Of a stretch of DNA of 64,000 nucleotides, positions 1,001 to 3,154 are shown piece after piece. Source of the DNA: an uncultured Anaerolineaceae bacterium (GTDB lineage Bacteria; Chloroflexota; Anaerolineae; Anaerolineales; Villigracilaceae); assembly GCA_964407265.1 (NCBI GenBank), contig CAYOUV010000011.1:800-64799 (forward strand), given 5' to 3'. Position 1 is the stretch's first letter; every line of letters begins with the position of its first letter. The notes below the pieces were generated by a model, which ran no database searches, was not told the origin of the DNA, and worked only from the letters and a program-made list of their open reading frames with translations. Made by a program: the position numbers and the translations under genes.

Positions 1001-3154
1001 TTAGTTTTCTGGAGCGCCAGCAGCGATCCAATCCAAGATAATTTGAATTTCAGCATCAGACAACTTGCCAGTTGGAGGCATCACGGCTCCCTGGGTACCC
1101 GTGATGCGCTGGGCCAAGATGCTATTGGTAATATCGCCAGCGATGACGACCGGTCCATTCTTGCCAGTGCTTGTGACGGCTTGATATGAGGTCGAATCCC
1201 AACCCCCAAATGATGTTTTTTGGTTATGGCAAACCTGGCACCGGGTCTGCAGGAGCGGCGCAACTTGTCCGGAGAAACTGACTGACGAAGCGACAGGCGC
1301 AGCCGGCGTGGCGCCTCCCAGAACGCGGAGATATTGGACCAGCAATTGGATTTGTTCGGCGGAGAGGTTTTCTCCCCAGGCCACCATCGGGGTGGCTGTA
1401 TGGCCATTGCTGATGGTGTCAAACAAGGCTTGATCGTCATATTTGTCCTGGAAATCCTGGGTGTTTAAAGCGGGGCCAACCCCGCCTTCTCCCTTGGCGC
1501 CATGGCAACTGGCGCAGGCGATCGCGTAAAGTTGCCCACCTGTCAGGCTGGGTATGGGCTCCGGTGTGGGGGCACTTCCCTCAGGAGTCGGTGGCGGGGT
1601 TTCAGTGGCGAAGGTTGGCGGCTCTTCCACGGGCGGGTTGGCTTCCCAACTGCGGAGGTATTCCACGACAGCGTCCAGTTGCTCATCACTAAATGGACCG
1701 CCGTTTGCATCACCAAAGGAGGGCATGCCCAGACTCGGTTGACCCTGCGAGATAATATTTCTCAGTGTAGCATCGTCACGGGTTTTCAGGAATTCCGCAG
1801 TGCTGATGGGCGGGATGATATCACCCGCACGGGCAGGGTTTGGACCACCCTCACCAAACTGACCATGACAGGCACTGCAGTTCTGGGCAAAGAGATTGGC
1901 ACCAATTCCAGTACCGCCGCCCTGGCTGGTTTCGTAAGTATATTTAACCAGTGCATCCAATTGTTCGGGCGTGAGAATATTGCCCCAGACGGGCATGGTG
2001 ATATGCGGACCACCGCTGCTGATGATCTTGACCGCGCTTTCTTTATCCGGCGCGGAGGGGACCTTGTCACCGTGACAGGCGGCACAGTGTTGGCCGAATA
2101 AAGCTGCCCCGCCTGATTCGGATTTTGGATCGACGACGTAGGCAGCCAGGGTGTTCAAATCGGCCTCGCTCAGGGTTCCCTTCCAAGCCGGCATGGACAA
2201 ATGCTGTCCGCCCTGCGAGATCAATGTGCGAAGTTCTTCTTCCGTGCCCGAAAAAGCCACACCCTGTCCATGACAGCCCGCGCAGTTGATTGCAAATAAG
2301 CGCTGTCCATCCGGTGCGGCCAGGAAGTTTAGTAAGGCATTCTGCCCGTCAGAAGTGAGCACCTGGCTCCAGTCGGGGATATCCAGCCCTTCATGGCTGG
2401 GGTAATTGGCGCCTTCTGTAAAGACACGTTGAAGTTCCAGCGGATTACCGATGGCCTGGACCATCTGCGTGTGGCAGGTTTCGCAATACTGGACGTAAAG
2501 GGCACTGCCATTGGGCGACAGGATAAAGCCGGCCAGTTGATCGATTTCGTCAGTGCTCAGGTCACCACCCCAGGCTGGCATGCCTTCATGCGTACCCGAG
2601 GCAATTACCTTGTGTAAATCTGTTCCGGGTGGAATATCGATACTGGGGCCGTGGCAATTGGCGCAATTCGCAGCATACAAAGCTGCCGCTTGATCCACAA
2701 CCACTTTTTCCTGCGGCGGGGGCGCTGCGGTCGCCGCCAGGATAGTCAGTACCCCAATCCCGGCAACAACGGCCAGGGCTGTCAAGGAAGCAAACGGACG
2801 GTTGCGGAAATGGCGTTTGGCACTCCTGTCAATAAATGGCAGGGCGAGCAAGAGTAGAATAAACAATCCAGGCAAGATCATGGCCCCGATTACTTCCAGG
2901 TTGCCGGGGAAATATTTAAGCAGCTGGAATAAGAATAGGAAATACCATTCGGGTCGCGGGGTGTAGCTGGTATCGTTGGGATTTGCCCGAGCTTCCACCG
3001 GCGCGCCGATGAAATACGCCAGGGCAACCAAAATCAGGAAAACCACCAGGGATACAACTACATCCTTGAAGATGATGTCCGGGAAAAAGGGCACGCCTTT
3101 TTCTTTGGCTTCCTTATAGCGCTGCAAGTAGGATTTTTTCTCTCGATCGTTCAT
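1001..3154 (-). CDS. Cytochrome bc-complex subunit IV (cytochrome b C-terminal half, PEWY) fused to seven c-type haem domains
   Basis: The N-terminus has 3 TM helices with RPEWYFLFLFQLLK (Qo-site PEWY). Seven CxxCH follow: CANCH, CETCH, CAGCH, CAACH, CSACH, CASCH, CQVCH. MPxW Met-ligand motifs recur. Confidence 0.85.
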   Translation of the reverse strand: MNDREKKSYLQRYKEAKEKGVPFFPDIIFKDVVVSLVVFLILVALAYFIGAPVEARANPNDTSYTPRPEWYFLFLFQLLKYFPGNLEVIGAMILPGLFILLLLALPFIDRSAKRHFRNRPFASLTALAVVAGIGVLTILAATAAPPPQEKVVVDQAAALYAANCANCHGPSIDIPPGTDLHKVIASGTHEGMPAWGGDLSTDEIDQLAGFILSPNGSALYVQYCETCHTQMVQAIGNPLELQRVFTEGANYPSHEGLDIPDWSQVLTSDGQNALLNFLAAPDGQRLFAINCAGCHGQGVAFSGTEEELRTLISQGGQHLSMPAWKGTLSEADLNTLAAYVVDPKSESGGAALFGQHCAACHGDKVPSAPDKESAVKIISSGGPHITMPVWGNILTPEQLDALVKYTYETSQGGGTGIGANLFAQNCSACHGQFGEGGPNPARAGDIIPPISTAEFLKTRDDATLRNIISQGQPSLGMPSFGDANGGPFSDEQLDAVVEYLRSWEANPPVEEPPTFATETPPPTPEGSAPTPEPIPSLTGGQLYAIACASCHGAKGEGGVGPALNTQDFQDKYDDQALFDTISNGHTATPMVAWGENLSAEQIQLLVQYLRVLGGATPAAPVASSVSFSGQVAPLLQTRCQVCHNQKTSFGGWDSTSYQAVTSTGKNGPVVIAGDITNSILAQRITGTQGAVMPPTGKLSDAEIQIILDWIAAGAPEN

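Follow-up and report, generated by a model that had tools for sequence, protein, structure and literature searches.

Within the window analysed here, a 64,000-nucleotide (nt) stretch of contig CAYOUV010000011.1 from an uncultured Anaerolineaceae bacterium of the Chloroflexota, the open reading frame (ORF) at 1001..3154 on the minus strand encodes a protein of 717 amino acids (aa), in which the subunit IV of a split cytochrome b is continued by seven domains of c-type cytochrome. The gene of this protein, referred to as subunit IV-c7, starts with ATG and is the last complete one of an operon that also encodes a Rieske iron-sulfur protein and a cytochrome b6, and its product is very likely a seven-haem c-type subunit of a Rieske/b6 complex that oxidises menaquinol. 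The haem domains are expected on the outer side, and the fusion probably hard-wires the bc complex to partners outside the cell membrane. In characterised bc complexes the core complex bears, to our knowledge, one or two c-type haems; seven on subunit IV, and consequently fourteen per dimer, would widen the known design range of a much-studied respiratory enzyme. Anaerolineales are abundant in soils, sediments and sludge, and their respiration is poorly known.

Domain architecture and operon partners

The N-terminal part of the protein (aa 1-149; 2708..3154, on the minus strand like all features of the operon) represents the subunit IV proper, equivalent to PetD or the N-terminal part of QcrC. 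It comprises three transmembrane (TM) helices, evident both as hydrophobic segments at aa 20-58, 82-113 and 120-148 and as helices at aa 24-48, 86-108 and 120-142 in an AlphaFold2 (AF2) model, and it is matched by PF00032 (cytochrome b C-terminal/petD) at aa 57-158 with 46.5 bits, the Pfam cut-off being 20.7. The Qo motif PEWY occupies aa 68-71 (2942..2953), in the loop after the first helix, and is kept across the family. The PF00032 match, the three helices with PEWY and the Rieske and b6 neighbours all agree with an assignment to subunit IV; against TIGR01156, the equivalog for the subunit IV of b6f complexes, the score is 30.6 bits, below the cut-off of 127.05. The rest of the chain is covered by six stretches of PF13442 (Cytochrome_CBB3, E = 2.8e-72) followed by PF07635 (PSCyt1) at aa 639-696, with 27.8 bits at a gathering cut-off of 22, and with such Pfam E-values chance is no issue. 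Exactly seven CxxCH motifs are present, at aa 164, 224, 291, 357, 426, 547 and 639, so that they follow one another at distances of 60, 67, 66, 69, 121 and 92 aa.

All seven domains can be aligned with one another, the two Cys and the His of the haem-binding motif and one Gly being invariant, and by sequence they are of three kinds: a mini class-I type is represented by D1-D4, each 60-69 aa long, a full-size c6/c552-like type by D5 and D6, and the PSCyt1 type by D7. When the conservation of candidate ligands is followed through an alignment of 121 family sequences, the distal Met proves invariant or nearly so in every domain except D2. D1 (aa 150-209; 2528..2707) has CANCH at aa 164 and a HEGMPAW segment with invariant H189 and M192; D3 (aa 277-342; 2129..2326) has CAGCH at aa 291 and invariant M321-P322; D4 (aa 343-411; 1922..2128) has CAACH at aa 357, invariant H384 and P388, and M387 in 120 of the 121 sequences. 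The His three residues ahead of the Met is thus a feature of all three, invariant in D1 and D4 and kept in 94% of the sequences in D3. These are also the mutually closest of the mini domains, D2 (aa 210-276; 2327..2527; CETCH at aa 224) being the most divergent. The Met site of D2 is taken by Leu, Val, Gln or Ile, with Met in none of the 121 sequences, and His254 is present in all of them; because Met is absent from every member while this His is invariant, the haem of D2 probably has His/His ligation.

The full-size D5 (aa 412-507; 1634..1921), c6-like and matched by PF00034 at aa 418-502, has CSACH at aa 426 and the invariant M477. It is joined to D6 by a Pro/Thr/Glu-rich linker (aa 508-535; 1550..1633) that is poorly conserved, ranges from 12 to 27 aa across the family with 29% Pro, and is predicted to be disordered, its predicted local distance difference test (pLDDT) values in the AF2 model lying below 50. 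D6 (aa 536-614; 1313..1549), which contains the best PF13442 stretch (aa 538-609), is c6/c552-like, with CASCH at aa 547 and M590 in 99% of the sequences; a short Ala/Pro linker (aa 615-623; 1286..1312), likewise with pLDDT below 50 and variable in length throughout the family, leads to the terminal D7 (aa 624-717; 1004..1285). The latter belongs to PSCyt1 ('planctomycete cytochrome c', PF07635), has CQVCH at aa 639 and an invariant M692-P693, and is followed directly by the stop codon (1001..1003).

A preliminary description of this DNA had already recognised the fusion of a subunit IV, with PEWY and three TM helices, to seven c-type haem domains, and this is borne out by Pfam, by the motif scan and by the operon with Rieske and b6 genes. 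It had also noticed a recurring CxxCH...MPxW/F...LSxxE/D-I/L module, which the alignment of the seven domains recovers, and the lack of Met in D2, which turns out to extend to the whole family; its motif spacing of 80-100 residues, in contrast, has to be replaced by the values given above. The module itself is presumably the ordinary C-terminal signature of c6/c552-like class-I cytochromes, and the c6/c552 fold matches described below are consistent with such a c6-type signature. A CxxCH near the N-terminus of the domain together with a distal Met in an MP motif, as typical of class I, is found in D1 and in D3-D6, D2 being the exception. D6 stands nearest to the soluble carriers, since the NCBIfam models for cytochromes c6 (PetJ), c551, c550 and cL all match aa 538-612, and its PDB sequence matches are CcoP (3mk7_C, the best one), anammox c-552 and cL. 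The protein does not fall among the c3, c7, NrfB or Mtr types, as PF22113 stays below its cut-off and the motifs are 60-121 aa apart; PF14522 reaches 29.5 bits over the whole protein, yet no single stretch passes.

The two partner genes are tightly linked to subunit IV-c7. The split cytochrome b6 (219 aa; 3157..3816; PF00033 with E = 1.3e-49, PF13631) has the four His for two b haems, and its stop codon lies 2 nt ahead of the subunit IV-c7 start, which is preceded by a Shine-Dalgarno-like AAGGA. The Rieske protein (161 aa; 3816..4301; PF00355), with a twin-arginine translocation signal (TIGR01409) and the cluster-binding boxes CTHLGC and CPCHNGVF, is encoded by a gene whose stop overlaps the cytochrome b6 start. 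The order Rieske, cytochrome b6, subunit IV recurs in all 20 related loci examined. A scan of 900..8900 for promoters and terminators gave counts no greater than in shuffled sequence. The cytochrome b6 scores 240.6 bits against the NCBIfam cytochrome b6 subfamily, below the cut-off of 325. In b6f and Firmicute enzymes a Cys of cytochrome b6 binds haem ci; at this position, within FYTLGS, the protein of the window has Thr. Nor does the pair belong to the ExtP/ExtQ proteins of selenite/tellurite operons (NCBIfam NF040969, NF040970), since cytochrome b6 reaches 222.3 bits against ExtP with a cut-off of 290, and subunit IV 28.1 bits against ExtQ with a cut-off of 150. High-potential Rieske clusters are marked by a Ser and a Tyr, both of which are missing from CPCHNGVF. 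This fits the reported correlation between low-potential Rieske proteins and the use of menaquinone (PMC4122944), and PEWY is likewise on record in menaquinone users (PMC4122944).

Conservation and insertion history of the haem array

The seven-domain architecture is widespread. A search of 5.8 billion proteins with subunit IV-c7 gave 2,618 hits at E <= 1e-10. Their best 120 clusters, drawn from JGI, ENA, NCBI and Logan assemblies, are 64-97% identical to the window protein; 109 of these clusters have all seven CxxCH at matching positions in a chain of 700-720 aa, and the other 11 have six, mostly in proteins of about 620-640 aa that lack the last (PSCyt1) domain. The gene also occurs in about 20 GTDB species representatives (one genome per species) at 44-96% identity, and one of the related loci (L011) is 96% identical throughout the neighbourhood. 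Nearly all carriers are metagenome-assembled genomes (MAGs) of Anaerolineales or other Chloroflexota, obtained from soil, sediment and water. The proteins bear generic names ('c-type cytochrome' or 'mono/diheme cytochrome c family protein'), and some members are called 'menaquinol-cytochrome c reductase cytochrome b/c subunit' in IMG. As for the possibility, raised in the preliminary description, that heptahaem fusions might already be a common annotated family, they are indeed common in the databases, but annotated by generic names only.

The same description had named an assembly chimera as the outcome that would undo its proposal, and the architecture shared by 109 of 120 clusters and about 20 independent MAG species, with over 100 assemblies independent of each other, settles that the gene is not one. 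A petD-like gene joined to a separate multihaem gene by misassembly or frameshift, or else a set of haem domains in decay, might be suspected from the broken reading frames at four related MAG loci from long-read assemblies (L011, L015, L019 and L025) and from the missing Met of D2, but this explanation is effectively refuted, and its probability practically nil, in view of the uninterrupted 700-720 aa chain of the closest clusters, the CxxCH and His254 of D2 kept in 121 of 121 sequences, the lack of near-identical DNA repeats in the gene and a domain-by-domain orthology in which the best match of each domain is the same-numbered domain, in members down to 44% identity. From this last result it also follows that the expansion is older than the radiation of the family and that all seven domains have been maintained under selection. 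Neither tandem repeats nor near-identical internal DNA repeats were found in the subunit IV-c7 gene, the best internal similarity being 60-83% over 18-33 nt around the CxxCH codons; therefore, an assembler could not have miscounted the domains, and a recent tandem duplication miscounted in this way is ruled out. The frameshifted copies at the four loci are likelier to reflect sequencing errors than pseudogenes.

Relatives with other haem numbers reveal how the array may have been assembled. When subunit IV alone (aa 1-149) was searched against 1.84 billion representatives, 71 clusters were obtained at E <= 1e-30. Among the best 150 representatives, 46 have no haem motif, 43 one, 39 two, eight three and six four; five motifs occur in one, six in three, seven in two, eight in one and 17 in one, and many of the zero and low counts come from contig fragments. 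By sequence, the relatives form a graded series of 2, 3, 4, 6, 7 and 8 haems. They share a common grammar at the level of Pfam, namely a subunit IV followed by n class-I domains and a terminal PSCyt1, with n = 1 in P0145, 2 in P0133, 3 in P0160 and 6 in the window protein; the terminal PSCyt1 is accordingly found in 2-, 3- and 4-haem relatives too. P0137, with eight haems, has an additional D5/D6-like domain ahead of the last domain, which best matches D7. The named short forms are likewise from Anaerolineae: P0145 (367 aa) and P0133 (444 aa) are database entries with generic names; their subunit IV is the same (51-54% identity across the 149 aa of the query), their first haem domain is D5-like and they likewise end in PSCyt1, but they differ from the window protein in lacking D1-D4 and, in the case of P0145, also D6.

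Aligned with the window protein, the trihaem P0133 is collinear throughout but lacks one clean block of about 265 aa, which lies behind the membrane anchor and in front of D5. The domains of P0133 score 328 against D5, 222 against D6 and 226 against D7; the first haem domain of P0145 also has D5 as its best match. Judged from these alignments, D5 is orthologous to the domain that carries the first haem in the di- and trihaem relatives, and, because P0133 is collinear apart from the block, D1-D4 are seen as an insertion into a trihaem form (subunit IV-D5-D6-PSCyt1) that is still extant. Serial duplication of one class-I domain, as initially proposed, accounts for the array only in part, given the three kinds of domain, the inserted block D1-D4 and the PSCyt1 nature of D7. 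The 2/3/4/6/7/8-haem series constitutes a natural set in which the effect of relay length, tethered heads and mixed ligation on turnover could be studied.

Two further proteins from the search with subunit IV have a full-length cytochrome b: P0221 (810 aa) combines b6 and subunit IV in one chain with one class-I domain and 16 closely spaced CxxCH, 17 in total, and P0212 (746 aa), from Chloroflexota, has four class-I domains. Long tblastn spans had suggested that subunit IV is fused to several haem domains in Acidobacteriota, Verrucomicrobia, Rokubacteria and other groups as well; these candidates were discarded, as the spans string together fragments of adjacent genes, none of which has more than one CxxCH.

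Proposed electron transfer through the array

In subunit IV and QcrC proteins, the region after helix G lies on the outer membrane face, and the haem domains of subunit IV-c7, because they follow helix G, are placed on that face by this known topology. The shape of the array was approached by structure prediction. The full-length AF2 model, built like the others without haem, has a mean pLDDT of 70.7, and within the haem part low confidence is restricted to aa 140-152, 508-535 and 615-623, which correspond to the linkers that follow helix G, D5 and D6; pLDDT below 50 also occurs in parts of the membrane region (aa 20-28 and 50-92), whose partner subunits were absent from the model. Modelled alone, D1-D5 reach a mean pLDDT of 77.9 and a predicted template modelling score (pTM) of 0.66, with three of five models in agreement, which suggests that they form a compact body. 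Foldseek searches of the PDB with the full-length and D1-D5 models returned single- or double-domain matches to c6, c552, the c-domain of cd1, actinobacterial QcrC, CcoP and TsdBA, with query-normalised TM-scores (template modelling) of 0.21 or less, and no solved analogue of the multi-domain array was found in them.

From these elements a working model can be drawn, to which we incline with some reserve: subunit IV-c7 would be the c-type subunit of an Anaerolineales menaquinol:cytochrome c oxidoreductase, with D1-D5 as a relay and D6 and D7 as tethered heads addressing extracytoplasmic partners. Subunit IV would supply the PEWY side of the Qo site, and electrons would pass from the Rieske cluster into an array of seven covalently bound haems. 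D1-D5, packed without linkers, would act as a fixed multi-haem relay, and the c6-like D6 and the PSCyt1 domain D7, each on a Pro-rich disordered linker, would be mobile; these heads would hand electrons to extracytoplasmic partners in place of a soluble cytochrome c. The partners would probably be the multihaem cytochromes encoded alongside and, in one lineage, probably a molybdoenzyme. The model is supported by the operon and the Pfam assignment of all three genes, the conservation of the seven CxxCH positions, of the individual domains and of the Met ligands, the linkers, the prediction for D1-D5, the likeness of D6 to soluble carriers, the Rieske box, the synteny and the molybdoenzyme locus described below and a ccm cluster nearby.

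Several points nevertheless weigh against it. The pTM of the full-length AF2 model is only 0.40. The replacement of a soluble carrier presupposes a cell without an outer membrane that would retain soluble cytochrome c; that these bacteria have neither outer membrane nor soluble cytochromes c is an assumption drawn from Chloroflexota in general. The His close to the Met in D1, D3 and D4 makes ligation and potentials uncertain from sequence, and a low-potential stretch, made of the putative His/His haem of D2 and the HxxM domains, would make a simple downhill wire unlikely. In the tetrahaem cytochrome of purple-bacterial reaction centres high and low potentials alternate, and for this reason a His/His D2 need not block transfer. 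Finally, since D5 is orthologous to the membrane-adjacent domain of the di- and trihaem forms, electrons may still enter at D5, with D1-D4 as a side arm.

This last point leads to the main rival, which stems from the insertion history. In this layout D5 may keep its ancestral place by the Rieske head, electrons running from Rieske to D5, D6 and D7, and D1-D4 would loop out as a side arm that could store electrons, connect the two halves of the bc dimer or offer a second port to the lower-potential multihaem network encoded by the adjacent genes. The clean insertion seen against P0133 (265 aa, between anchor and D5) and the strong conservation of D5 between tri- and heptahaem forms speak for it, and so do the properties of the inserted domains, which are short, have the His three residues before the Met and have lost the Met in D2; this His conservation and Met loss make a low-potential arm possible. 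The CxxCH of D1 (aa 164), however, lies about as far from helix G as the first haem motif does in the short relatives (aa 170-172), so that D1 could equally have taken over the membrane-proximal place, and the compact prediction for D1-D5 is compatible with either arrangement. On balance, the branched route is regarded as somewhat unlikely.

The second alternative concerns the partners and depends on the genes that surround the operon. Only 19 nt after the subunit IV-c7 stop begins the 5' part of a NapC/NirT-family multihaem gene (1..982, minus strand) that runs off the window, PF03264 and PF07635 being matched in the neighbouring genes. Its full orthologue, at 10174..11871 of locus L011, encodes 565 aa that begin with a single helix and end in a PSCyt1, with one CX3CH and six CxxCH; eight haem motifs are counted in all, the last of them in PSCyt1. 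Upstream, and also on the minus strand, lie a conserved gene for a cytochrome b561 (Ni_hydr_CYTB/FdhG-like) with a Pro/Thr-rich linker and a C-terminal PSCyt1 (4858..6102), the gene of a nine-haem cytochrome c with a C-terminal membrane anchor (6102..7262; Pfam, hydrophobicity and synteny), and that of a six-haem lipoprotein-like cytochrome, MHC358 (7596..8672), with a (GPA)6 collagen-like spacer near its N-terminus, encoded by a 9-nt tandem repeat at 8472..8537. The nine-haem, b561-PSCyt1 and NapC/NirT-PSCyt1 genes are found together in about 15 of the 20 loci, sometimes in permuted order. Compared by eye, b561 and the NapC-like protein have PSCyt1 tails that look about 70% identical, both with 'HF' in place of the 'MPP' of the subunit IV tail.

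On the basis of published descriptions of the Geobacter proteins and of CymA/ImcH (bioRxiv 10.1101/2021.04.15.440034; PMC6295460), the nine-haem/b561 pair resembles Geobacter CbcA/CbcB in its domain design (bioRxiv 10.1101/2021.04.15.440034), and the NapC-like protein resembles the CymA/ImcH quinol dehydrogenases. Three quinol modules, as read from their sequences, are encoded together, the Rieske/b6/subunit IV-c7 complex, the CbcBA-like nine-haem/b561 pair and the NapC/NirT-like octahaem protein, and each ends in PSCyt1. No function of PSCyt1 was found assigned in the searchable literature; that it forms the end of three quinol-linked proteins here speaks for a role in docking or electron exchange.

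Instead of forming a link to oxidases, the array might then belong to a route of electron export or uptake across the envelope, shared with the nine-haem/b561, NapC/NirT-like and lipoprotein multihaem cytochromes and used for the reduction of metal oxides or electrodes or for the oxidation of an Fe(II)-type donor. This fits the conserved multihaem synteny, the PSCyt1 ends of all three membrane modules in the cluster, the likeness of the neighbours to CbcBA and ImcH/CymA in described domain design (bioRxiv 10.1101/2021.04.15.440034; PMC6295460) and the lipoprotein-like start and (GPA)n spacer of MHC358, and in one locus (L014, 956..17325) the heptahaem operon is even part of an island, together with genes for a b561, for an Fe-S protein and for six or more additional multihaem cytochromes. 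On the other hand, the likeness to CbcA, CbcB and ImcH is one of description only; distal-Met class-I domains and a Rieske-dependent Qo site need acceptors above the Rieske potential and are ill-suited to most Fe(III) minerals; and in three loci (L021, L010 and L012) the sequence covered has the heptahaem operon but none of these neighbours. In L021, the most divergent heptahaem member (44% identity; 49..14284), the genes of a molybdopterin oxidoreductase (894 aa), a PD40 propeller, a NarJ-like chaperone and a 4Fe-4S protein are instead followed by Rieske/b6/subunit IV-c7 and then by FmdE, TauE, MoaA and MoaE, with molybdenum-cofactor genes among the last, a gene context which suggests a periplasmic molybdoenzyme dependent on the bc complex in this lineage. 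A role in extracellular electron transfer is judged unlikely, and it does not exclude the preferred relay model.

In a more far-reaching and still less probable proposal, a proton-motive Q-cycle enzyme would be hard-wired into an external multihaem network, the three co-encoded quinol modules docking by their PSCyt1 'plugs' on a common multihaem partner and the potential of the acceptor or donor selecting the coupling site. If this were true, an energy-conserving route of extracellular electron transfer would be built around a bc complex. Whatever the partners, the linkage of the operon to multihaem cytochromes, or to a molybdoenzyme in one lineage, yields testable hypotheses on what Anaerolineales respire.

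Comparison with known complexes and wider gene context

The closest parallel is the Bacillus-type QcrABC complex, which has the same gene order of Rieske, split cytochrome b6 and subunit IV, presumably also with menaquinol as the quinone, and in which QcrC is likewise a three-helix subunit IV with a class-I cytochrome c at its C-terminus, on the outer face. However, QcrC carries one class-I haem as opposed to the seven found here, its single-domain plan does not describe the window protein, and it has no terminal PSCyt1; moreover, the Bacillus-type cytochrome b6 has the haem-ci Cys, whereas the b6 of the window has the Thr of FYTLGS.

In the actinobacterial bcc-aa3 system, the tandem class-I domains of the dihaem QcrC relay electrons from Rieske directly to the terminal enzyme without a soluble carrier, much as proposed here, and this QcrC is among the best fold matches (7qhm_C, 7e1w_O). 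It is nevertheless a separate anchored subunit with two haems, whereas the domains of the window protein are fused to subunit IV, and the latter scores 80.5 bits against the model of the actinobacterial dihaem QcrC (NF050122), with a cut-off of 200. Tethered class-I haem domains that shuttle between bc1 and oxidase are represented by cytochrome cy and CcoP in bc1-cbb3 supercomplexes. CcoP was mentioned above as the best PDB sequence match of D6 and also appears as a fold match (6xkw_p), but these proteins have one or two haems that are not in subunit IV, and TIGR00782 (CcoP) gives 124.9 bits with a cut-off of 179.95.

In anammox bc complexes, additional haems reside on separate multihaem subunits of the c3/HAO type. 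A bc core is joined there to many c haems, as in the window, but through separate subunits and not by a class-I string on subunit IV. For these Rieske/cytochrome b complexes a role beyond simple cytochrome c reduction has been proposed (PMC12954380). Among published statements, the nearest concerns the 'PEWY-cyt c / PDWY-cyt c' clades, in which cytochrome b carries a single fused class-I domain (PMC4122944).

Fusions of subunit IV or cytochrome b with cytochrome c, in Bacillus QcrC and the clades just mentioned, are therefore already known, as are multi-haem additions in Actinobacteria and anammox bacteria. The searchable literature, subscription journals not being covered, yielded no account of several class-I domains arrayed on subunit IV; neither the arrangement of six class-I domains plus PSCyt1, its origin by block insertion, the Anaerolineae series of 2-8 haems nor PSCyt1 as a repeated end module was found described. 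The initial statement that known fusions carry one haem consequently holds for the characterised complexes, as far as we know, and for the searchable literature, but not for the databases, where 1-8 haems are found, and 17 in one cytochrome b fusion.

Divergent from the cytochrome cluster, the plus strand of the window carries at 8800..19636 a two-component system, made up of a HisKA_3 kinase and a LuxR-type regulator, and then a complete System I (ccm) set with CcmE, CcmF, a thioredoxin, CcmA, CcmB and CcmC; two-component and ccm genes together span 8.8-19.6 kb, the ccm cluster being 7 kb from the operon. The ccm set encloses the gene of a 637-aa dihaem membrane protein (15575..17488, plus strand). 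Farther along the same strand, a 544-aa ORF with no Pfam match (19881..21515) is followed by a gene for a CCG/4Fe-4S protein of the HdrD/GlpC-like type (21759..23768). A similar Fe-S protein gene, together with electron transfer flavoprotein (ETF) genes, lies downstream of the cluster in the related locus L001.

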